From Acaryochloris marina MBIC11017 (GTDB lineage Bacteria > Cyanobacteriota > Cyanobacteriia > Thermosynechococcales > Thermosynechococcaceae), in NCBI RefSeq assembly GCF_000018105.1, contig NC_009925.1, forward strand, positions 1,470,001-1,502,000: a DNA stretch of 32,000 nucleotides, written 5' to 3'. Of this stretch, positions 1 to 12,046 are shown one piece after another; positions within the stretch are counted from its first letter, which is position 1, and each line of letters starts with the position of its first letter. Below the pieces are notes generated by a model. It worked only from the letters and a program-made list of their open reading frames with translations, was not told the origin of the DNA and did not search any database. The position numbers were made by a program, and so were the translations under genes.

Positions 1-624
1 TTCTTGGTTCTCTTCTAGCTTGAGACGAAGGTAGCGAATGTAAACTTCGATGATATTGGAGTCTCCCATAAAGTCGTAGCCCCAGACTTGTTCCAGGATG
101 CGATCGCGGGTCAATACCTGGCGAGGATGCATCATCAAATACACCAGCAAATCAAACTCCTTGGCCGTTAGCTCAATCGAGCGTTCACCGCGGAAGATCT
201 CACGGGTGCGCTGGTTAAGGGTCAAGTTGGAGAATTCTAGGACATCGGGATCTTCTTCCTGGGTGCGCCGCAAGTGGGCTCGCACCCTAGCTAACAGCTC
301 TTCGATGCTAAAGGGCTTCACCATATAGTCATCCGCCCCGGCATCTAGCCCTTCGACCCGATCGCTAATTTCATCTTTGGCGGTCAATAAAATAACGGGA
401 ACTTTATCCCCGGTTGCCCGCAGACGTCGACAGACTTCAACGCCAGAGAATCCTGGCAGCATCCAGTCCAGGAGAATTAAATCCGGTTGAGACTCGCGAG
501 CAGCGGTGAGTCCCCCGATGCCATCATTGGCCACGGTCACCTGATACCCCTCATGGGTCAGTTCCATTTCAACAAATTGAGCCAGTTTGGTTTCGTCTTC
601 AACCAGGAGAATATGTGCTGTCAT
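1..624 (-). CDS. OmpR/PhoB-family response regulator (C-terminus runs off the window edge)
   Basis: The minus-strand frame is open from ATG 624-622 to base 1. It is absent from the ORF track because no stop is reached. The translation starts MTAHILLVEDETKLAQFVEMELTHEGYQVTVANDG...DLILLDWMLPGFSG...LLTAKD...MVKPF (receiver domain). It continues with LTAKEFDLLVYLMMHPRQVLTRDRILEQVWGYDF (winged helix). The ATG overlaps the stop of the upstream kinase gene (ATGA at 621-624), suggesting translational coupling. Confidence 0.9.
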   Translation of the reverse strand, partial: MTAHILLVEDETKLAQFVEMELTHEGYQVTVANDGIGGLTAARESQPDLILLDWMLPGFSGVEVCRRLRATGDKVPVILLTAKDEISDRVEGLDAGADDYMVKPFSIEELLARVRAHLRRTQEEDPDVLEFSNLTLNQRTREIFRGERSIELTAKEFDLLVYLMMHPRQVLTRDRILEQVWGYDFMGDSNIIEVYIRYLRLKLEENQE

Positions 625-2135
625 ATTTTTGCTTCAGGAGATATGGGTAACGTCACGGTGAATGTACTGCCTTCACCCTCGGCAGACAGGACACTGACTT
701 GTCCTCCCATGCCTTCGGTAAAGGTCTTGACTAGGGAGAGGCCCAGACCAACGCCACCGGTACAGCGGGCTCGGGCTTCATCTAATCGATAAAAACGTTC
801 AAAAATGCGGGACTGTTGTTTGAGAGGGATACCATCGCCGCGATCGCACACATGAATCAAAGCTGAGTCCTCTCGTTGTTCTAGCTTCACTGTGACAGGT
901 TCCGTCGTTGCAGAATATTTAATCGCATTTTCCACCAAGTTTACCAATACCTGTTGGAGACGCTTCGCATCAGCAAAAACGGGAATTAGAGGAGACTCAA
1001 ACTCCAAATCAATCTGACGCTGATTAAACTTGTCTGCCATATTAACGACTTCTACCGCCACATCGTTCAGAATCAACGTCTCCAGATGATAAGGCATATA
1101 CCCATCATCCGCTCGGGCTAAACACAGTAAATCTTGCAATAACTGAATCGTCAGGTTCGCCTCAGCCGTAGAGATTTCCAAGGCTTCCCGCTGCATTTCA
1201 GTCAGGTTATCGCCCCGCCGTTGAATACTTTGCAAATAGCCTCGGACAATCGTGAGAGGCGTTCGCAGTTCATGGGAGACATTGCCCACAAACTCTCGCT
1301 GTCGCTCCGTAGCATGCTGCTGCTCATGCCAAGCCTCAGATAGGCGCTCCAACATCCGATTGAAAGTCTCTGTCAATTCTTGGATTTCACTGGGCGCATT
1401 ATCAATTTCTACCTTTGTCTTCCCTAAATCATCCGGCGAAATGGCTTTTGTCATTAAGTCCATTTGGCTTAAGGAGCGTAAGGAACGATGCACATACCAA
1501 GTTAAAGCCAAAGTGATCAAGACAACAGCAACTGAACTAGCCAAAGCCAGAGATTGCACACTAGCGATAAACTGGCGTTGATCCTCAGTAATATCTTGAG
1601 CCACAAATAACGTTCCCAAAGACTGGTTCCTCACCATTAAAGGGCTATGGCAGGCGACAAAATCTCGCCCTTGAATGTGATAGACCTTGGGGACAATGCT
1701 GTCTCGGAAAGCCGTTGCCAACGAACCAGGGCCTTCAAATCGTTGCCACGTTGGCCCCGACATATTGGCAGACATCGCCACCAAATTTTCTTGGGAATCG
1801 TTGACCCACAGCAGTAAATTACGTCCAGACCGATTGTTAATCGCTTTTTCAATACTCTTTTGCAGCGGGAACATCTCATCTTGTTGATAAAGCACCACAT
1901 CATCCGCAATGCGATCGCTAATATCAACAATTTTTTGCTTATGACTAGAAATCAAAATCCGCTGCATCTTCCAGCTCGTCCATACAGCGACACTGGTTAA
2001 CCCCACAGCAATCAGTCCTGCAATACTAGCCGTCAGCCGAAACTGGAGTGACTTAGGATTCACAGCTTGGCGCAACTGAGGAGAGACGTTTCGCCATCCC
2101 TTACCCAGGGAAGATTTGATCGGAAGTTCACCCAC
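621..2135 (-). CDS. Sensor histidine kinase with two TM helices flanking a ~130-aa periplasmic domain, then HAMP, HisKA and HATPase
   Basis: 504-aa ORF with a GTG start at 2135. Hydrophobic segments are LTASIAGLIAVGLTSVAVWTSW and FIASVQSLALASSVAVVLITLALTWYV. H-box [15 protein letters not shown]-box LVNLVENAIKYS, G1 DRGDGIP, G2 GGVGLGLSLV. The architecture matches CusS/CopS/NrsS-type envelope sensors. Confidence 0.9.
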   Translation of the reverse strand: MGELPIKSSLGKGWRNVSPQLRQAVNPKSLQFRLTASIAGLIAVGLTSVAVWTSWKMQRILISSHKQKIVDISDRIADDVVLYQQDEMFPLQKSIEKAINNRSGRNLLLWVNDSQENLVAMSANMSGPTWQRFEGPGSLATAFRDSIVPKVYHIQGRDFVACHSPLMVRNQSLGTLFVAQDITEDQRQFIASVQSLALASSVAVVLITLALTWYVHRSLRSLSQMDLMTKAISPDDLGKTKVEIDNAPSEIQELTETFNRMLERLSEAWHEQQHATERQREFVGNVSHELRTPLTIVRGYLQSIQRRGDNLTEMQREALEISTAEANLTIQLLQDLLCLARADDGYMPYHLETLILNDVAVEVVNMADKFNQRQIDLEFESPLIPVFADAKRLQQVLVNLVENAIKYSATTEPVTVKLEQREDSALIHVCDRGDGIPLKQQSRIFERFYRLDEARARCTGGVGLGLSLVKTFTEGMGGQVSVLSAEGEGSTFTVTLPISPEAKI

Positions 2136-2147
2136 GCTAGCCGTCCC

Positions 2148-2759
2148 TCAAAATAACTTAGCGGTATGGGAAACTGAATCAAAGCTGTATCGGTTCTGAT
2201 AATCCGTCAGTCCGTAAAGATTAAACGTCACCGTCGGTTCATCCCCTAATGCCTCTACACAGTGAATGGCTTCAGGCATTAGGCTAATCGTATCGCCAGG
2301 ATTTAAAGTCAACTCACCTACGGACTCAATTTTGTGGGGATAGTCATCAGATGGGGTCCGCTGCCAAAACGTATTTTTCTCTTGGCCACTCACCAGCGCT
2401 ACAACCCCCCACGTTGCATGATTATGAATCTGGGACGTTTGCCCCGGTGCCCAAACCACCGTTTGTACCGTTAGGGGAAAATTCGGTTCATCGTAGAGCA
2501 TGGTGACCGACCAGCCTTTTTCAGGGTCAGGAGGCTGAATCTCAAACTGCAACCAGGCCGAGTCCGTTAACAGTTCTCTAACGAGGGGATGAATGGCCTG
2601 TAAACGCTCCTGATCTTGGTCAGTCGCGGCTAAAATATCTTCAACTTCTGTCAAAAACCGATACAGTCTATAGGTTTGCGCTCTCTTCTGTGGCAAAGAC
2701 TGATGGGACCAAGGTTGCACTTGGCCATCATCCTTTACGAACCAATCTTGGTCTACCAT
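2148..2759 (-). CDS. Cupin-fold protein, cysteine-dioxygenase type I-like (3-His metal site, COG5553-like)
   Basis: 203-aa ORF with an ATG start, ending 12 nt upstream of the kinase gene. It carries cupin motifs SQIHNHATWGVVALVSGQEKNTFW and PEAIHCVEALG (H-x-H plus a distal H). The family assignment comes from motif recognition only. Confidence 0.65.
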   Translation of the reverse strand: MVDQDWFVKDDGQVQPWSHQSLPQKRAQTYRLYRFLTEVEDILAATDQDQERLQAIHPLVRELLTDSAWLQFEIQPPDPEKGWSVTMLYDEPNFPLTVQTVVWAPGQTSQIHNHATWGVVALVSGQEKNTFWQRTPSDDYPHKIESVGELTLNPGDTISLMPEAIHCVEALGDEPTVTFNLYGLTDYQNRYSFDSVSHTAKLF

Positions 2760-2929
2760 CTTGACGTTCTACAAAGTGGACTCAAATCTATTGAACACTG
2801 ACTGGATAGTCAGGGGTAAGGTTCAGGAGACAACTGAAGACGTAGTTCCCCAGCTTTAGCGTAATCGCATAGGATTGAGTTTGTCCTTGATTGAAGTCAC
2901 CATCACTCACTTTAGGTAAAGTCACTGGG

Positions 2930-3199
2930 TTAATCTCTTCCCTCCACAAATAGAAACCCAGGCTTAAAACTGGATTTGCGTTTTTCCAAAGTTTCGCTGC
3001 TCAGTTTCTTACAATCATCTGCCTGTGTTGTTTTGAACCTGAAATTTTCAGATTCTGTCTCCAAAAATTGACAGCCAGTTTGAGTCAATTTAATCACTTC
3101 TACAGGTTGATCTACATCGCTGGTTTGAGTGTTTGAATCACAGCCTTCCACAAGGACAAATGCGAACAAACTTTCATACCGAATGAGTCTAGATTGCAT
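2930..3199 (-). CDS. Small hypothetical lipoprotein-like ORF, possibly the 5' part of a frameshifted cupredoxin-like (EfeO N-terminal-like) gene extending to 2788
   Basis: 89-aa ORF with N-terminus MQSRLIRYESLFAFVLVEGC (hydrophobic segment plus Cys). The +1 frame stays open downstream to a stop at 2788-2790 and encodes ...REEINPVTLPKVSDGDFNQGQTQSYAITLKLGNYVFSCLLNLTPDYPVSVQ. See the finding on 2788-3199. Confidence 0.4.
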   Translation of the reverse strand: MQSRLIRYESLFAFVLVEGCDSNTQTSDVDQPVEVIKLTQTGCQFLETESENFRFKTTQADDCKKLSSETLEKRKSSFKPGFLFVEGRD

Positions 3200-3559
3200 A
3201 GAGTTTCAGCTCATCAAGGGGTCTCAAGCAAAGCCCTATCTCAAGTTTAAAGTTGTACAGATGATATCGCCCTGACCCCTAAATAAATTTTTCCTGAGAA
3301 GTATGTAGAATCAATCCAAACAGGCTTTAGGGTCACTGTTTAAAATCCTTCAATCCTGCCATAAATCACTTTCTTAACCAATCCCAATCTCCTTCTCAGC
3401 AAAATTTCAGATTGGTCAGTCTCAATCAAGAATGTCTGCCTGAACCTTCTGAAAAATTTGCCAAAAGAACTTCCTATTTCAGCCAAATTTCCATTTAATG
3501 CAACAATTAATTAGGCAATTTTAGTTGCACCAAAGATTAATCCGTCATGGAGAGTATCA

Positions 3560-3946
3560 ATGAAAGTTAAATATATGGCAATGGTTGCCACCGTTTCTCT
3601 ACTCAGTGTTGGTGGCCTGGTGATTGGTTGCACTAATCCCTGTGCTGCTCAAGATAAGAACGGAACCGAAACAACTGAAACAGCAGATCCTTGTGCTGCA
3701 AAGTCAGGCGATCCTTGCGCTGCAAAGTCAGGCGATCCTTGCGCTGCAAAAGATGACCCCTGTGCTGCCAAAGGAGATCCTTGCGCCGCTAAAGAAGATC
3801 CCTGTGCTGCCAAGGCAGATCCTTGCGCCGCTAAAGAAGATCCCTGTGCTGCCAAGGCAGATCCTTGCGCCGCTAAAGAAGATCCCTGTGCTGCCAAGGC
3901 AGATCCTTGCGCTGCCAAATCAGAAGACCCCTGTGCAGGATCCTAA
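3560..3946 (+). CDS. Cys-rich heptad-repeat lipoprotein (11x DPCAAK, plus NPCAAQ and DPCAG)
   Basis: 128-aa ORF. GGAGAG lies 6 nt upstream of the ATG. The signal peptide MKVKYMAMVATVSLLSVGGLVIGC has a lipobox-like VIGC. The remainder is a repeat array with 14 Cys in total. This is the only one of three overlapping repeat-region ORFs that has a start context and a signal peptide. Confidence 0.7.
   Translation: MKVKYMAMVATVSLLSVGGLVIGCTNPCAAQDKNGTETTETADPCAAKSGDPCAAKSGDPCAAKDDPCAAKGDPCAAKEDPCAAKADPCAAKEDPCAAKADPCAAKEDPCAAKADPCAAKSEDPCAGS
3686..3940 (+). repeat. In-frame tandem repeat array: 24-bp units x2, 21-bp units, and three perfect 42-bp copies (3776-3817, 3818-3859, 3860-3901)
   Basis: Direct reading: gatccttgcgccgctaaagaagatccctgtgctgccaaggca occurs three times back to back. 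The two 21-bp halves encode the same DPCAAK but use different third-codon positions in five of the six codons. Confidence 0.95.
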
Positions 3947-4137
3947 TCCTTTTCCCCATAGCCTTCGTTAAGGCTGTGCTCAATTACAACTACAGATAAC
4001 GATAGAATGCTGGAGGTAGATACTATGGTGTCTACCTCTGTTCTATCTGCTGTTTTGCGAGAATTTGATCCATCACCATTGCCAACCAGAGATCCAAGCA
4101 AATGCACTGGGACAGATAGTTAGCAAAACCGTTTTCA

Positions 4138-4599
4138 ATGATTAATCAGATGAATCCAACCACTATGTCTTTACGTGTCAAGTTTGCCTGTTTTTGTATG
4201 GCGTTTGCGTTGCTCGTCAGCAGTTTCCTCAGCCCACCTGCCCTTGCAGTAACCCAAATTGAACTTAAGGATCTCACCTATGAAGAATGCTCTGCTGAAG
4301 TTGGCAAGGGTACCGTTACCAGTGGAGGACCAATCATGCGATTGGCCAACTGTTTTATCATTTCGGGGACAACGGTCAACAAATCCGGCAAACCTGTGAT
4401 GGATGCAGACGTATTTGGCCGTATCTTTGATGCAAACAACAATCCAGCCATGGAAAACCGGGGACGGTTGGGAGCCATTGATATCGTTGAGCCTGGAGAA
4501 GGCACTTTTGAGCTAAGGGTGAGTGTCCCCGATGCCCTAGAAACCCCCTTAAAACTTGAGCAGTTCAAGGCAAGCGGTTTTACAGCCAAAGTCCGTTAA
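4138..4599 (+). CDS. Secreted (Sec-signal) hypothetical protein
   Basis: 153-aa ORF. The N-terminus ...MSLRVKFACFCMAFALLVSSFLSPPALA|VTQ resembles a cleavable signal peptide. The true start may be the ATG at 4150 or 4165. A strong terminator follows. I recognise no family. Confidence 0.6.
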   Translation: MINQMNPTTMSLRVKFACFCMAFALLVSSFLSPPALAVTQIELKDLTYEECSAEVGKGTVTSGGPIMRLANCFIISGTTVNKSGKPVMDADVFGRIFDANNNPAMENRGRLGAIDIVEPGEGTFELRVSVPDALETPLKLEQFKASGFTAKVR

Positions 4600-4619
4600 C
4601 GACTATTGATTTAACCCTT

Positions 4620-4662
4620 AAAAAACAACCTGAGTTCAACTTTAGAACTCAGGTTGTTTTTT
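4620..4662 (+). terminator. Rho-independent terminator
   Basis: Perfect 17-18 bp stem aaaaacaacctgagttc / gaactcaggttgttttt with a 7-nt loop and a trailing T-run, 21 nt after the stop of the 4138-4599 ORF. Confidence 0.85.
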
Positions 4663-4675
4663 ATTGCAGAATAAT

Positions 4676-5619
4676 AGACCTCTTGCATATTTGGATTTGC
4701 GATATGGTATTGAGCCTGATGTTCTTTCTCTTCAGTACCATATTACGAAACAGCCCAACAGCTGAGTGCAAAGGACTTTAAGCGACGAACTGGAGTCTAC
4801 AAACAAACCTTTAAACGCATGCTCCACGCATGGCATACCCATCATCTAGGTCGCTCAAATGCAGGGCGTCCTCCAAAGTTGTGTCGCCCTGATCAACTAT
4901 TGGTGGCTCTTCAATATTGGCGGGAATATCGGACTTATTTCCATATTGCTGGAGATTGGGAAGTCTCTGAATCAACTGTCTGCCGTATTGTCCACCAGGT
5001 CGAAACCGCTCTGATGAACTCAGGACTCTTTCGCTTACCTGGTCAGAAATCTCTGCTACAAGGGTTTGAGCGACCGGATGTCGTTGTGATGGATGTGACT
5101 GAAACGCCCATTGAACGTCCCCAGAAAAGACAAAAAGCGTATTATTCAGGGAAAAAAAGAGACATACCCTCAAATGCCAGATTATCGCTGACCGCAACAC
5201 TTTAGAGATTATCTGTCTGAGCTTTGGCCCAGGCCGTCGGCATGATTTTCAGATCTTCAAGGTTTCAGGTATCCATATCCATCCAAATACCGAGAGTCTG
5301 CAAGATAGCGGATATCAAGGGATTGCAGCCTACCACGCCAACAGCTATGTTCCTTTCAAGAAGTCACAACACAGTGAACTGACTTCCCTGCAGCGAGAGT
5401 ATAACCGTGCTCTGAGTCAAGAACGAATGGGCATTGAACACATTAAATCGCAGCCTGAAGATTTTCAGAATTCTGTCGGAGCGCTACCGTAATCGTCGTC
5501 GTCGCTACACGCTGCGGTGTAACTTGATTGCAGCTCTCTATAACCATGAACTATCTTTGGCTGCTTAAGGGATGGAAAACAGCAATACCACATCGTCAAA
5601 TGAATATTGCAAGAGGTCT
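4676..5619 (+). mobile_element. IS5-family (Harbinger-like DDE_Tnp_4 type) insertion sequence, decayed
   Basis: Imperfect ~38-bp terminal inverted repeats: left agacctcttgcatatttgg..., right reverse complement agacctcttgcaatattca..., with the outer 12 bp identical. AAT flanks both ends (4673-4675 and 5620-5622), a possible 3-bp target duplication. The interior encodes a transposase split over three frames. Confidence 0.75.
4720..5567 (+). pseudogene. IS5-family DDE transposase, interrupted reading frame
   Basis: Frame 1 gives ...QLSAKDFKRRTGVYKQTFKRMLHAW...VVVMDVTETPIERPQKRQKAYYSGKK. After the A7 run (5152-5158) the -1 frame continues KKRHTLKCQIIADRNTLEIICLSFGPGRRHDFQIFK...SGYQGI...ERMGIEHI. 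A second shift near 5445 is needed to read NRSLKIFRILSERYRNRRRRYTLRCNLIAALYNHEL. There is no ATG at the head of the first frame. Confidence 0.7.
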
Positions 5620-5653
5620 AATGAGAAGACTGACGAGCCTATAGCCGTTATTT

Positions 5654-8774: not shown

Positions 8775-9560
8775 ATGATTACCAGCTTGCAAAATCCGCT
8801 GATTAAACAAATGCGGAAGTTGCAGCAGGTCAAACATCGCCGTCAGCAAGGCAAGCTGCTGCTCGAAGGCACCCATTTACTCCAGTCTGCCTGGGAGCAA
8901 AATTGGTCCTTTGAGATTGTTTGCTATACAGATAGATGGCAAGCCAAATATCCCCAGATATGGCAGCAAATTCAAGACCGAACGACTCGGTTGGAGCGGG
9001 TCAGCCCAGAGGTCTTGCAAGCCACTGCGACAACCGTGCATCCTGATGGCGTGGTAGCAGTCATTAGTCGGCCAGCAACACCATCGTTACCGATTCAGAC
9101 TTTAGGACTAGCCCTAGAAACCATTCAAGATCCGGGCAATCTTGGGACCTTAATTCGGACCTCTGTGGCGACTCAGGTGGAAGGGCTGCTGCTCAATCAA
9201 CAGTGTGCAGATCTAGAAAGTCCCAAAGTCTTGAGGGCTTCGGCTGGAGCCTGGTTTCATCTTCCCCAGCGGGCAACGGATAAATTCGTCACCGTATTAC
9301 AAACGTATAAACAGCAGGGCATGCAGCTTATTGCCACGGTTCCCGATGCATCCCACACCTTTTGGCAGGTTGATTATCGCCAACCCACCCTGATCTTGAT
9401 TGGCAATGAAGGAGCAGGTTTATCCCAGCCTGTGTTGGATTTGGCCGATCACCAGGTCAATATTCCCATTGCCCCAGGGGTGGAGTCGTTGAATGCTGCG
9501 ATCGCAGCCGCGCTTCTCCTCTACGAAGTCCGTCGGCAGCGTGATGGCAAACCCGCTTGA
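8775..9560 (+). CDS. TrmH/SpoU-family RNA 2'-O-methyltransferase (RlmB-like)
   Basis: Sequence from ATG 8775: MITSLQNPLIKQMRKLQQ...LLEGTHL...IQDPGNLGTLIRTS...LIGNEGAGLS...IPIAPGVESLNAAIAAALLLYE. The ORF-track start at 8721 would overlap tRNA-Leu. Confidence 0.85.
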   Translation: MITSLQNPLIKQMRKLQQVKHRRQQGKLLLEGTHLLQSAWEQNWSFEIVCYTDRWQAKYPQIWQQIQDRTTRLERVSPEVLQATATTVHPDGVVAVISRPATPSLPIQTLGLALETIQDPGNLGTLIRTSVATQVEGLLLNQQCADLESPKVLRASAGAWFHLPQRATDKFVTVLQTYKQQGMQLIATVPDASHTFWQVDYRQPTLILIGNEGAGLSQPVLDLADHQVNIPIAPGVESLNAAIAAALLLYEVRRQRDGKPA

Positions 9561-10340: not shown

Positions 10341-11552
10341 TTAGGGTAATTCTGTCTTTAAAACCTCAATAGGAAGCTTGTTTTGGCCGCATTGCAGAGC
10401 GGGTGGGTGAAAGTTAAACTGCTTAAATGCTTCATAGTAACTGAGAATATTTTGGATACTGGGCTCCCCAATCGTTGTGGGTAGCTCATTTTTCAGAGAG
10501 AGTAATAAACCTTCAGCAAGACAAGACCAAGCTGTACTAGATAGACCATGCTCATCCTGTTCAGCAAAATCAAATGGAAAGCGTGATAAGTACCCAATGC
10601 TATGGCAATCAATCAGGCCTGCCTCACATGGGGCAAGATCATGATAAGTCCGACATCTGTTCCATGCCTTTTCACGATCCCAACAGTAGGGCTGGCTATC
10701 ATCGATCAAAATGGTTCCGGGGGCAACGTGATCTATCTCAATCACATGCCAAGAACTCACAGCCGTGACTAAGAATTTGCAGTCATAACAAGAACTATGG
10801 GGGGGTACTTCTCCCCTTGGTGTCGTTAATTCAAAAGATATCTTCGTCTTTTCTGCATTTTTTTGTAGAGACTTACAAAGGGTATTCAAGTGCTCTGCCC
10901 GAGAAGGCTTGTCTACCAGAATGAGTTCTCTCGGCACGAGGGGTTGCTGGAGTAAAAGTCGGGCAAATGCCCCGCCCACACTACCGGCACCAAGAACGAC
11001 CATTTTCGAGGTTGAGACGTCTATCGCCAGATCATGAATCGATCTTAAGTAGGTTTCTAAGACAGAAATGGAAGTCACCGAGTGCCCCGTGGTTAACGTA
11101 ATGCCCAGTTCCTGGGCCAGTGCTGCTAACTTTCTACCATAGAGGGAAAGAGACCCCGTGAGTCCACCTAAACAAACAAAACGTGCACCCGATTGAGCAG
11201 CAAGCCTAAGCCCATCTTGTAAGATTTTACGACTGCCTGAGCGAGTGGATGGATGAATAATATCTTGGGCATATACTGGCAAAAAGAGAATACCCACTCG
11301 CACTGATCTGGTTTCCAACACCTCACCAAATGCTGGCTTGAGATGCTTGGTTAAAGAGGCCCGTTCATGGTGCTCTAAGTTTTTGCTCCAAGGAAACATG
11401 CGAGGTAAATCATCTTCATCCCTAGGATGTGTAATCAGAACCACATCAAAATCGGCATCTTTCTGGTGGGACTTACAACTTTCTAACCAATCAAAGTAGG
11501 CATCGGGGCCTATCCATGAGCAAAGGCTGTGTGATTGAGTTTTGGCTTGCAT
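10341..11552 (-). CDS. COG5322-type NAD(P)-dependent dehydrogenase, paralogue of long-chain acyl-ACP reductase (AAR)
   Basis: 403-aa ORF with an ATG start. Its segments align with what I recall of Synechococcus elongatus AAR:
- VVLITHPRDEDD with GLIGHLTSLEQ
- CLGGLTGS with ALGGFTSI
- TTGHSVTS with TTGNTHTA
- the Rossmann motif VVLGAGSVGGAFARLL with VVGATGDIGSAVCRWL
- LIDDSQP with LIDGGYP
- AWSCLAEGLLLSL with MFACFAEAMLLEF (the catalytic Cys region). Confidence 0.7.
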   Translation of the reverse strand: MQAKTQSHSLCSWIGPDAYFDWLESCKSHQKDADFDVVLITHPRDEDDLPRMFPWSKNLEHHERASLTKHLKPAFGEVLETRSVRVGILFLPVYAQDIIHPSTRSGSRKILQDGLRLAAQSGARFVCLGGLTGSLSLYGRKLAALAQELGITLTTGHSVTSISVLETYLRSIHDLAIDVSTSKMVVLGAGSVGGAFARLLLQQPLVPRELILVDKPSRAEHLNTLCKSLQKNAEKTKISFELTTPRGEVPPHSSCYDCKFLVTAVSSWHVIEIDHVAPGTILIDDSQPYCWDREKAWNRCRTYHDLAPCEAGLIDCHSIGYLSRFPFDFAEQDEHGLSSTAWSCLAEGLLLSLKNELPTTIGEPSIQNILSYYEAFKQFNFHPPALQCGQNKLPIEVLKTELP

Positions 11553-12046
11553 CGTAGCTGATCGTGGTATGAATGACTAAATGATTTACCCTGCCTTCCA
11601 AAGTCAAAATGACGCTCTGGATAACCAAGGATTTCATCGGCAATTTTGCAATCGCCCACTATCGGCTATTGTTCTTGAGCTAGCTGATTGAGGCCTGATA
11701 CCTACCTAATTTTTGCCTGAGTATGTCATGAATACAGGGATACAAAGGATTCATCATGTCACTCTAACCATGGGCTGCCGATGATACAAGTATTGGAGCC
11801 TTCTGAAATATCCCTGCACTTTAATGAGGAGAAACTCAGTGGTGTTAGCCTGCGATACTCTCCGACCGGCCTTTGGTCATCGCAAGCTACTAATCTGATT
11901 TCAGGTAAAGCGGGTTTAAAAGCTTTCCGGAGAACTTAAACAGGCTCAACAAGAAAATTAAAGCAAGACTTTAGAAACTCACAAGCGTTATCCAATAATA
12001 ATTTCAGGACTTGATACTCCAGGAAATAGAGGGGGTAAAAAAAACT

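Follow-up and report, generated by a model that had tools for sequence, protein, structure and literature searches.

In Acaryochloris marina MBIC11017 a gene for a cupin of the thiol dioxygenase family is divergent to a gene for a cysteine-repeat lipoprotein, and this pair recurs in many orders of cyanobacteria. Both genes lie near the start of the stretch analyzed here, 32,000 nucleotides of contig NC_009925.1 (assembly GCF_000018105.1, positions 1,470,001 to 1,502,000 of the forward strand), which is called the window below. A sensor histidine kinase gene and an OmpR-type response regulator gene follow the cupin gene on the same strand. An earlier note on this DNA had proposed an envelope module for metal or thiol stress, and every gene and motif that it listed was recovered where it had been placed. 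Sequence comparison gives an about even chance that these genes make up a conserved cyanobacterial envelope-stress module with a regulated extracytoplasmic poly-thiolate buffer. Such a module would probably shield the envelope of the cell from copper-like metals or from oxidants. It is widespread in cyanobacteria and apparently undescribed; as the earlier note had supposed, no described locus with this gene content turned up in literature searches.

Conservation was examined in 80 loci of different species, each surrounding a cupin homologue; they were searched with the window proteins, and their neighboring open reading frames (ORFs) were clustered. A repeat ORF was scored when it had at least three PC[A/G/S] units and lay on the opposite strand, no more than 4 kb upstream of the cupin gene. 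Such an ORF is divergent to the cupin gene in 49/76 informative cyanobacterial loci. Only eight repeat ORFs were found elsewhere in 2.3 Mb of strand-sequence, an enrichment beside the cupin gene of ~48-fold. The synteny on which the earlier proposal depended is thus borne out. Kinase and regulator genes lie directly downstream of the cupin gene in 27/80 loci, and elsewhere an extracytoplasmic function (ECF) sigma/anti-sigma pair takes their place.

A free-standing repeat protein is encoded in this window and in Coleofasciculus, Symploca and Picosynechococcus sp. PCC 7002. In many genera the repeat is an N-terminal extension of a TlpA-like thioredoxin with a WCxxC motif; in Microcoleus and Tychonema the fusion partner is a YHS domain and in one locus only, L011, a DM13 domain. 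The conserved pair is thus the cupin and the repeat protein, and regulators and fused domains are interchangeable. Genes for repeats of the thioredoxin type are followed by a CcdA/DsbD_TM gene, and often by genes for thioredoxin reductase, a cytoplasmic thioredoxin and an ECF sigma factor with an RskA-type anti-sigma factor, which is the cluster type of Synechocystis sll0685–sll0688. Other recurrent neighbors are a lipoprotein with an FGE-sulfatase domain (15 loci), DUF4079 (12 loci), CutA (7 loci) and a cupredoxin lipoprotein. The earlier note had predicted three of the neighbors to be extracytoplasmic or metal-liganding, and the recurrent TlpA-like thioredoxin, CcdA, thioredoxin reductase, YHS, DM13, cupredoxin, CutA and ECF/RskA or NrsF genes fit this envelope thiol and metal theme.

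The cupin and the repeat lipoprotein

The cupin lacks a signal peptide. It had been described as similar to cysteine dioxygenase (CDO) with three histidine ligands, and His112, His114 and His166 are indeed invariant in 17 homologues. A profile of these 17 sequences matched mercaptosuccinate dioxygenase 8VNI at 2.7e-17, the 3-mercaptopropionate dioxygenases 6XB9 and 3USS at ~1e-15 and CDO at ~1e-5; in the test of family membership, E-values against solved thiol dioxygenases ran from 2.7e-17 to 1e-11. The AlphaFold2 model (predicted local distance difference test score, pLDDT, 90) retrieved 6XB9 and 4TLF in Foldseek with template modeling scores of 0.72–0.77. Fold and 3-His facial triad are therefore those of the thiol dioxygenase family. 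The outer-sphere Ser-His-Tyr triad was not found, as the family reads Thr/Ser176-Asn180-Tyr182 with the Asn invariant (T176-N180-Y182 in the window), and the Pfam model CDO_I gave 13.2 bits, below its 23-bit cut-off. Identity is 86–97% to cupins of Acaryochloris assemblies, ~60% between cyanobacterial orders and 18–25% to bacterial thiol dioxygenases. These comparisons set the cupin apart as a cyanobacterial branch of its own within the thiol dioxygenase family, and it would oxidize a thiol to the sulfinate in an Fe(II)-dependent manner. A literature search that combined cysteine dioxygenase, cyanobacteria and two-component systems returned nothing relevant.

The lipoprotein translated from 3560–3946 consists largely of heptads, mostly DPCAAK with a 7-residue period; it has the 14 cysteines reported earlier, a lipobox and 13 PCA units. 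Its signal peptide ends in VIGC (MKVKYMAMVATVSLLSVGGLVIG-C24, predicted acylation), in agreement with the lipobox pattern [LVI][ASTVI][GAS]C, and homologues have AAC, AGC or TGC at this place. The DNA has a repeat period of 21/42 bp. Among the 11 DPCAAK units, 161/330 pairwise codon comparisons differ and all differences are synonymous, indicating that this frame, and not the overlapping ORFs, is under selection. A spurious antisense ORF lies over the repeat gene at 3649–3918 and has an equivalent in PCC 7002; annotation pipelines may systematically miss the family. No further ORF with PCA repeats was found in the window.

Repeat protein homologues number 311, and all of those with an organism name are cyanobacterial. 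One without an organism name, P0234, is encoded on an apparently non-cyanobacterial contig of 72% GC, where the NPCAAK repeat protein is accompanied by CcdA, a thioredoxin, an ECF sigma factor with NrsF and a DoxX/MauE gene resembling G0162 of PCC 7002; a cupin was looked for in this locus and none was found. Lengths of 77, 84, 115, 117 and 128 amino acids among close relatives show that repeat number varies. In the loci compared, the unit consensus is [N/D]PCA[A/G/S]K with 5–8 residues per unit and 2–13 copies, and a signal peptide or lipobox precedes the repeat in every case. Variable unit length and copy number fit a capacity role rather than a fixed fold. Fusion to thioredoxin, together with the adjoining CcdA, implies that the repeat thiols are free and redox-active. 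No Pfam or NCBIfam model matches the PCA repeat, no paper was found in a literature search with repeat peptide strings, and homologues are annotated as hypothetical, thioredoxin/TlpA or YHS proteins and nothing else.

A stand-alone copy is also carried by plasmid pAQ7 of PCC 7002, where the regulator, kinase and cupin genes are divergent to a 93-residue repeat lipoprotein gene and a MauE/DoxX-like membrane protein gene lies 3′ of the latter. With ldhA as G0164 (PMC10160077) for an anchor, the module genes are G0158–G0162. The repeat gene occupies 9202–9483 (+) of this locus, L086 (NC_010474.1 ~183272–183553). RefSeq no longer annotates it and has in its place an antisense hypothetical ORF, SYNPCC7002_RS16885 (WP_156785491.1). 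A literature search found no paper mentioning G0158–G0162. The lipoprotein G0157, whose gene lies close downstream of that for the regulator, has been identified in a proximity proteome of the thylakoid lumen (PMC7880944). When homologues of G0157 and G0162 were sought near cupin genes elsewhere, only G0162 was found, in L021 only; a DoxX/MauE-like gene is present in PCC 7002, L021 and L087 alone among the loci inspected. The stretch that directly follows the regulator gene (L086 1733–5643) carries, in the same orientation, egtD and egtB for ergothioneine biosynthesis, a DUF427 gene and G0157. Foldseek matches of the cupin model include ADO and, as a distant one, ergothioneine dioxygenase, and with egtD and egtB as neighbors a link between the cupin and ergothioneine is conceivable.

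The two-component pair and the intergenic arrays

Pfam assigns Response_reg (3e-30) and Trans_reg_C (1e-22) to the regulator and HisKA (1e-16), HATPase_c (2e-29) and HAMP (1e-6) to the kinase. The acid pocket and phosphorylation residues of the regulator are canonical in translation (E9-D10, D53, T81, K103), and the two proteins form an OmpR/PhoB-type pair. The orthologous regulator of L081, a 97%-identical relative, is full-length with 224 residues. The kinase has transmembrane segments at ~33–53 and ~192–214, in accord with the periplasmic loop of ~130 residues noted earlier. Its periplasmic domain conserves H65, K66, Y83, W110, R157, C162 and D181-I-T in 21 orthologues, and C162 is the only cysteine of this domain.

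Its architecture had been likened to the envelope metal sensors CusS, CopS and NrsS. Domains and topology agree with this likeness, and the kinase aligns end to end with TIGR01386 (residues 28–497 against model positions 2–457), but it misses the heavy-metal subfamily cut-off, as does the regulator. The regulator also falls below the NblR equivalog NF045914 (250.2 bits in the window, 287.9 in L081 and 257.9 in PCC 7002; cut-off 300) and below RppA (238; cut-off 250). Since all curated equivalog and subfamily cut-offs are missed, the pair has no demonstrable orthologue among systems of known regulon, and an orthologue with an unrelated regulon, which would have spoken against the earlier proposal, did not emerge. 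NblR is an orphan, atypical regulator. The regulator of the window, by contrast, has the canonical residues for phosphorylation, and its kinase is translationally coupled to it. Among named regulators NblR is the closest to it, and a sister relationship is likely.

The earlier note had taken the divergent layout for that of a regulator and its target, and direct-repeat arrays were found on both sides of the spacer. On the repeat-gene side, genera other than Acaryochloris have 3–4 direct repeats of [T/C][T/C]ATCT with an exact 11-bp period, followed by TTAAT. A strict array, CAT[C/G]T-N6-CATCT-N6-CAT, is present in 19/25 informative loci with the kinase and in 0/45 without it (Fisher p = 2.8e-12), with one stray match in 1.3 Mb. 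On the cupin side the gene is preceded by TTCAGC-N5-TTCATC-N5-TTAGGA-N5-ATCATC, then TATAGA or TTAAAC; this architecture is seen in L005, PCC 7002, Microcoleus, Chamaesiphon and others, and PCC 7002 has canonical arrays on both sides. The recognition helix of the regulator is nearly identical between genera (SNIIEVYIRYLRLKL vs SNIIEVYIRALRIKL). From this co-occurrence we infer that the regulator binds the arrays.

A weight matrix made from cupin promoters of non-Acaryochloris-like loci only (11 representatives of 21 sites) had its best match in the 32-kb window at 3300 (−), which is the operon promoter (z = 6.4). The blocks 3255–3277 and 3281–3300 are conserved in five Acaryochloris-like genomes. 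Autoregulation of the cupin operon is well supported by these comparisons. On the repeat-gene side of the window the candidate array is degenerate, with a regex match CAGCAAAATTTCA at 3397 and a weight-matrix z of ~4.3; it includes the AAATTTC of 3402, and the blocks 3380–3399 and 3404–3427 are conserved in the clade. Closer to the gene lies a block in which 45/46 columns are identical in the five Acaryochloris-like genomes while the flanking spacer has diverged, followed by a TTAAT at the place where it follows the box arrays in other genera. Control of the repeat gene by the regulator is thus well supported in other genera, and plausible on weaker sequence evidence in this one.

The two motifs that the earlier note had offered as operators are present, but neither is the element conserved across genera. 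TGCAAC-N19-GTTGCA is found at 3499–3529; some 6-bp inverted repeat occurs in 90% of shuffles of the intergenic region, so it was rejected as significant by itself and is retained only because it lies inside the conserved 46-bp block. Of the three AAATTT[C/G] copies, the one at 3402 is inside the box array, that at 3485 is at the edge of the conserved block and that at 3454 is in variable spacer. Some 6-mer recurs at least three times in 64% of shuffles, and the triplet was dropped as an operator. Both motifs being weak alone, it is conservation that carries weight. A C[C/A]A[A/T]TT triplet with 12-bp spacing (3491, 3503, 3515), seen by eye, was too weak to claim. A scan with the sigma-70 consensus found no correctly oriented promoter. 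An RNA element in the repeat-gene leader was also rejected, as 3445–3575 has no stable fold (z = +0.54) and the intergenic region has no Rfam match at E ≤ 1.

Related sites were seen in other places. The second-best match of the cupin-side matrix in the window, far above the rest, is at 11676–11723 (−) (z = 5.6, TACTCAGGCAAAAATTAGGTAGGTATCAGGCCTCAATCAGCTAGCTCA). It lies ~125–170 nt upstream of, and faces, a 403-residue ORF (10341–11552, −) for an NAD(P)-binding reductase resembling AAR and the PigE N-terminus, which may be a further member of the regulon. In L038 and L074, where neither kinase nor regulator is adjacent, boxes of the regulator type occur on each side of the divergent region, and the Coleofasciculus loci L016, L017 and L032 keep the first cupin-side boxes, followed by the palindrome TGTCAAAATTGACA. 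The regulator of these loci may be encoded elsewhere in the genome. The ECF-type loci L009, L056 and L067 share GTTACGAAG-N9-12-AAATGGATTTAA between the thioredoxin-repeat gene and the cupin gene; its reverse complement, AAATCC-N16-CGTAAC, resembles an ECF-type promoter facing the repeat-thioredoxin operon.

Layout of the locus, the lipoprotein pseudogene and flanking genes

The coordinates of the locus are collected in Table 1. The ATGA overlap between kinase and regulator and the 12-nt gap between kinase and cupin were checked in the sequence and are present, and the divergent spacer, reported as AT-rich, spans 360 bp (3200–3559) at 37% GC.

Table 1. Features of the locus and its surroundings (window positions; operator and promoter elements are predicted)
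Feature	Position	Strand	Remarks
Response regulator	1–624	−	OmpR/PhoB family; last ~16 residues past window start
Sensor histidine kinase	621–2135	−	Two transmembrane segments, ~138-residue periplasmic domain, HAMP-HisKA-HATPase
3-His cupin, 203 amino acids, cytoplasmic, thiol-dioxygenase family	2148–2759	−	Profile, fold, conserved His
EfeO-type cupredoxin-like lipoprotein pseudogene	2788–3199	−	ORFs 2930–3199 and 2788–2949, different frames
Predicted operator/promoter of cupin operon	3255–3300	−	Four 11-bp-period boxes TCAG/TTAT/TCAG/TCATCT, then TTTAAAC
Degenerate box array toward repeat gene	3393–3430	+	TCAG/TCAG/TCAG/TCAA, spacings 11, 9, 10 bp
46-bp clade-conserved block, directly upstream of repeat gene	3485–3530		Holds inverted repeat 3499–3529
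TTAAT of repeat gene (−10-like, 3537–3541) and GGAG ribosome-binding site (3549–3552)	3533–3555	+	21/23 columns conserved
PCA-repeat lipoprotein, 128 amino acids	3560–3946	+	14 Cys, 13 PCA units, lipobox
Terminator-like hairpin after repeat gene	4011–4040	+	13-bp stem, then T-rich tail
Exported 153-residue protein	4138–4599	+	Signal-peptide-like N-terminus
Hairpin after 153-residue gene	4618–4664		Looks like bidirectional terminator

Between the operon promoter and the cupin gene lies what had been described as a cupredoxin-like lipoprotein ending at 2788 or 2930. The description holds for the family but not for this copy, and the two ends are not alternative stops. Relative to intact orthologues a 62-bp deletion (junction 2961/2962) removes ~20 codons and shifts the frame; because it splits the reading frame, the gene is a pseudogene. 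The lipobox alanine has also become glutamate (LVEGC, against LVAGC in L081). Other lesions are found independently in relatives: the same TGA is present in L081 and L001, the latter also has additional frameshifts, and in L002 the gene has decayed. This TGA stands at the codon where L003 has CGA (Arg), within the stretch deleted from the window, and is read as a nonsense mutation in a decaying gene. An intact ORF of ~157 amino acids is retained in L003, L013, L015, L019 and L027. By this comparison the pseudogene now serves as a leader between promoter and cupin gene.

The intact lipoprotein family comprises 904 proteins, nearly all annotated as hypothetical, and every one with an organism name is cyanobacterial; some UniRef members are named "EfeO-type cupredoxin". 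Intact members had no significant Pfam or NCBIfam match. A model of the intact orthologue P0241 (pLDDT 81) has the cupredoxin fold, with Foldseek matches to the cupredoxin domain of EfeO (7WGU, 8.8e-6), amicyanin, CuA domains and FtrB. The type-1 copper ligands (His, Cys, His, Met) were not found, as only Cys43, Cys63 and Cys144 are invariant and no His or Met follows Cys144.

The exported protein of 153 residues, which the earlier note had counted with the module, is an ORF with a signal-peptide-like N-terminus, but tblastn matches are confined to L001–L003 among the 80 loci and it is additionally found in L081. By this distribution it is a lineage-specific neighbor outside the conserved module. 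It had no significant Pfam or NCBIfam match (YtkA-like 0.067 and FxLYD 0.076, both below threshold), and the first terminator-like hairpin separates it from the repeat gene. Downstream of it the strong hairpin AAAAAACAACCTGAGTTC...GAACTCAGGTTGTTTTTT had only sub-threshold Rfam matches, to unrelated miRNA and sRNA families. Between the 153-residue gene and yggT the window has ~930 bp of extra DNA (~4680–5620) with transposase-like ORF fragments at 4819–5205, 5224–5382 and 5434–5568, all on the plus strand, whereas only ~130 bp separate the two genes in L081. The extra DNA is probably an insertion sequence or its remnant.

Possible function and relation to known systems

From the gene content and folds described above we infer a stimulus, metal binding and a cupin substrate that would work together as follows. 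The membrane kinase would sense a periplasmic signal through its ~138-residue domain with the conserved single C162 and phosphorylate the OmpR-type regulator. The regulator would bind arrays of 3–4 direct repeats (core TCATCT, ~11-bp period) that replace a −35 region. It would activate its own operon (pseudo-lipoprotein, cupin, kinase and regulator) through the boxes at 3255–3300, and also the divergent repeat gene, here through the degenerate array and the 46-bp block. The repeat lipoprotein would be a flexible chain of 13 units, each with one cysteine, anchored to the outer face of the cytoplasmic or thylakoid membrane; it would serve as a high-capacity thiolate buffer for soft metal ions and may absorb oxidants too. 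Electrons could pass from NADPH via thioredoxin reductase, thioredoxin and CcdA to a periplasmic thioredoxin that keeps the repeat reduced; most relatives encode this chain in the cluster or fuse thioredoxin to the repeat. The co-induced cupin would act in the cytoplasm as an Fe(II) thiol dioxygenase that converts a thiol to the sulfinate.

Among soft metals Cu(I) is the leading candidate, a tentative choice that, taken on its own, we think somewhat more apt to be wrong than right. Copper is favored because of the YHS, cupredoxin and CutA neighbors, the NrsF context, the cysteine-only ligands and the analogy with bufferins discussed below. Several points weigh against a regulated poly-thiolate buffer. 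It is not obvious what a thiol dioxygenase in the cytoplasm would contribute to metal buffering in the periplasm, and thirteen exposed cysteines in an oxidizing compartment could form plain disulfides. Neither thioredoxin nor CcdA is encoded in this window, where the Pfam/NCBIfam-scanned proteins contain no thioredoxin or DsbD_TM domain, and the near-identical L081 lacks both. A His/Met-rich site like that of CusS is absent from the periplasmic domain of the kinase, in which one Cys and one His are conserved. The kinase scores 211 bits against TIGR01386 (cztS/silS/copS; cut-off 292.55), and the regulator scores 218.5 against TIGR01387 (cztR/silR/copR; cut-off 279.2) for the truncated window copy, 242.2 in L081 and 220.2 for G0158 of PCC 7002. 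The strict, canonical triple TCATCT array, a candidate rejected for the window, is absent from it and from its Acaryochloris-like relatives, so that control of the repeat gene here would depend on the degenerate array (z ~4.3) and the 46-bp conserved block. The literature search gave no expression, binding or metal report for any member of the module.

The reducing chains that adjoin the cupin gene in other loci are complete, running from thioredoxin reductase through thioredoxin and CcdA to a repeat-bearing periplasmic thioredoxin, and they suit a thiol-redox module that involves no metal. Repeat cysteines would then be spent or recycled in reducing oxidants of the periplasm or lumen (peroxides, hypochlorite, singlet-oxygen products or quinones, for example), with re-reduction by thioredoxin and CcdA; the kinase would read the thiol-disulfide state through Cys162, the single conserved cysteine of its sensor domain, and the cupin would clear surplus or damaged cytoplasmic thiol. 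In mycobacteria the redox-sensitive SigK-RskA pair controls DipZ (CcdA-Trx), and the ECF/RskA regulators of other loci recall it. The Synechocystis thioredoxin Sll0685 appears among oxidative-stress proteins (PMC12382314). The YHS fusions, EfeO-type cupredoxin, CutA and NrsF context favor metals instead, and a dedicated peroxidase, being catalytic, would need far fewer cysteines. A purely redox function comes close to copper in plausibility, and taken as the whole explanation we hold it to be unlikely. The pairing of cupin and repeat gene holds under either type of regulator, which also suits a role of the cupin in maturation, akin to that of ribosomally synthesized and post-translationally modified peptides. 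Here the cupin, in place of MNIO enzymes, would convert repeat cysteines in the cytoplasm to sulfinates or another oxidized form before Sec/lipoprotein export, and these would be the real metal ligands. ADO and PCO are thiol dioxygenases that act on protein cysteines, and ADO is among the fold matches; the family-specific change of the triad His to Asn suggests a non-standard substrate. Iron oxidases are known to modify signal-peptide Cys-repeat precursors (e.g., EGKCG) before export (PMC12452194, PMC11626156, PMC11252979). Against this stand the free, redox-active thiols implied by thioredoxin fusion and CcdA, and the 72%-GC locus, in which genes for thioredoxin, CcdA and a DoxX-like protein accompany the repeat but a cupin is lacking. 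The clusters also share no conserved partner protein with a recognition element, and the substrates of known thiol dioxygenases of this fold are small molecules or N-terminal Cys only. By analogy, such a cupin would define a new class of genetically encoded, post-translationally matured poly-ligand metallophore of cyanobacteria, a mononuclear-iron cupin counterpart of MNIO/bufferin/oxazolin controlled by a two-component or ECF pair; we consider both this and the maturation route improbable.

Finally, the shared intergenic region could reflect adjacency and nothing else, with the cupin a housekeeping dioxygenase for a small thiol (cysteine, 3-mercaptopropionate or similar) and the kinase pair serving sulfur metabolism. 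The cupin does occur without a repeat gene or kinase beside it, as in several Nostocales loci, and its closest solved relatives use small thiols. The ~48-fold enrichment of repeat ORFs beside the cupin, the operator arrays that face both genes and follow the presence of the kinase, and the persistence of the association through swaps of regulator type and fused domain make this explanation very improbable.

The poly-thiolate buffer has its nearest analogues in the bufferins. In Caulobacter, SigF/NrsF control bufferin operons and bufferins buffer periplasmic copper (PMC11626156). Bufferins are Sec-exported Cys peptides matured by a non-heme iron oxidase, with DoxX in their clusters; EGKCG repeat proteins (oxazolin) bind Cu(I), and one bufferin fusion contains an FGE-sulfatase domain (PMC11626156, PMC12452194, PMC11252979). 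The published MNIO survey leaves cyanobacteria unmentioned. The module shares with bufferins and oxazolin (Caulobacter BufA1/BufA2, Haemophilus HvfA) the Sec or lipoprotein signal, multiple Cys motifs, an adjacent non-heme iron oxidase gene, envelope-stress regulators (SigF/NrsF) and, in PCC 7002 and L087, the DoxX-type gene of some clusters. Unlike bufferins, its iron enzyme is a mononuclear 3-His cupin, the [N/D]PCAxK repeat is unrelated and often fused to thioredoxin, which implies free thiols, and the family is almost exclusively cyanobacterial. Genes for the characteristic partners, MNIO (DUF692) and DUF2063, were not found in the gene tables of L081–L083, L085 and L087–L090 or in the recurrent clusters, so that the module has a signal peptide and Cys repeats from among the bufferin/oxazolin hallmarks but lacks the partner genes.

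With CopRS (PMC4335983, PMC4182526), CusRS and SilRS, which work with PcoE, SilE or CopM, the module shares the two-transmembrane kinase with a loop of ~130 residues and HAMP-HisKA-HATPase domains, the OmpR-type regulator, apparent autoregulation and a small exported, probably disordered protein, here predicted to bind metal, with its own regulated promoter. It differs in missing the TIGR01386/TIGR01387 cut-offs, in the lack of an RND pump, P-type ATPase or multicopper oxidase in the cluster, in predicted Cys thiolate rather than Met/His ligands, and in the thiol dioxygenase of the operon. The arrays resemble the pho boxes of PhoB, in that tandem direct repeats with an 11-bp period stand in for the −35 element and a −10-like TTAAT or TATAGA lies downstream of them; unlike pho boxes, the predicted sites have the core TCATCT, and the repeat-side array is degenerate in this window. 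Most relatives also resemble TlpA/ResA-CcdA pathways (mycobacterial SigK-RskA-DipZ, Synechocystis sll0685–sll0688), as the repeat is carried on a TlpA-like thioredoxin beside CcdA, often accompanied by thioredoxin reductase and an ECF sigma factor with an RskA-type anti-sigma factor. Unlike the described systems they have a poly-Cys extension and a linked cupin, and the window has the stand-alone repeat lipoprotein only. The cupin shares fold, 3-His site, size, an N-terminal helical region and the triad Tyr with bacterial 3-mercaptopropionate, mercaptosuccinate and cysteine dioxygenases; it differs from them in its low identity, its sub-threshold CDO_I score, its invariant triad Asn and its new link in the genome with a kinase and an exported poly-Cys protein.

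Cyanobacteria must supply both plastocyanin and cytochrome oxidase with copper across two membrane systems and yet escape copper toxicity. Few components that handle copper in their envelope are known, CopRS, CopM, CopBAC and PetRP among them. What is new here is that one module ties together a thiol dioxygenase, a dedicated sensor and an exported poly-Cys family not represented by a model in Pfam or NCBIfam, and that these poly-Cys proteins are often linked to a complete path bringing cytoplasmic reducing power to the periplasm. The module is experimentally accessible through pAQ7 of the genetically tractable PCC 7002 (G0158–G0161) and through the predicted operator boxes. If the poly-thiolate reading is true, the module would be a new type of periplasmic or lumenal buffer for metals or oxidants, and would provide the first physiological context for orphan cyanobacterial thiol dioxygenases.

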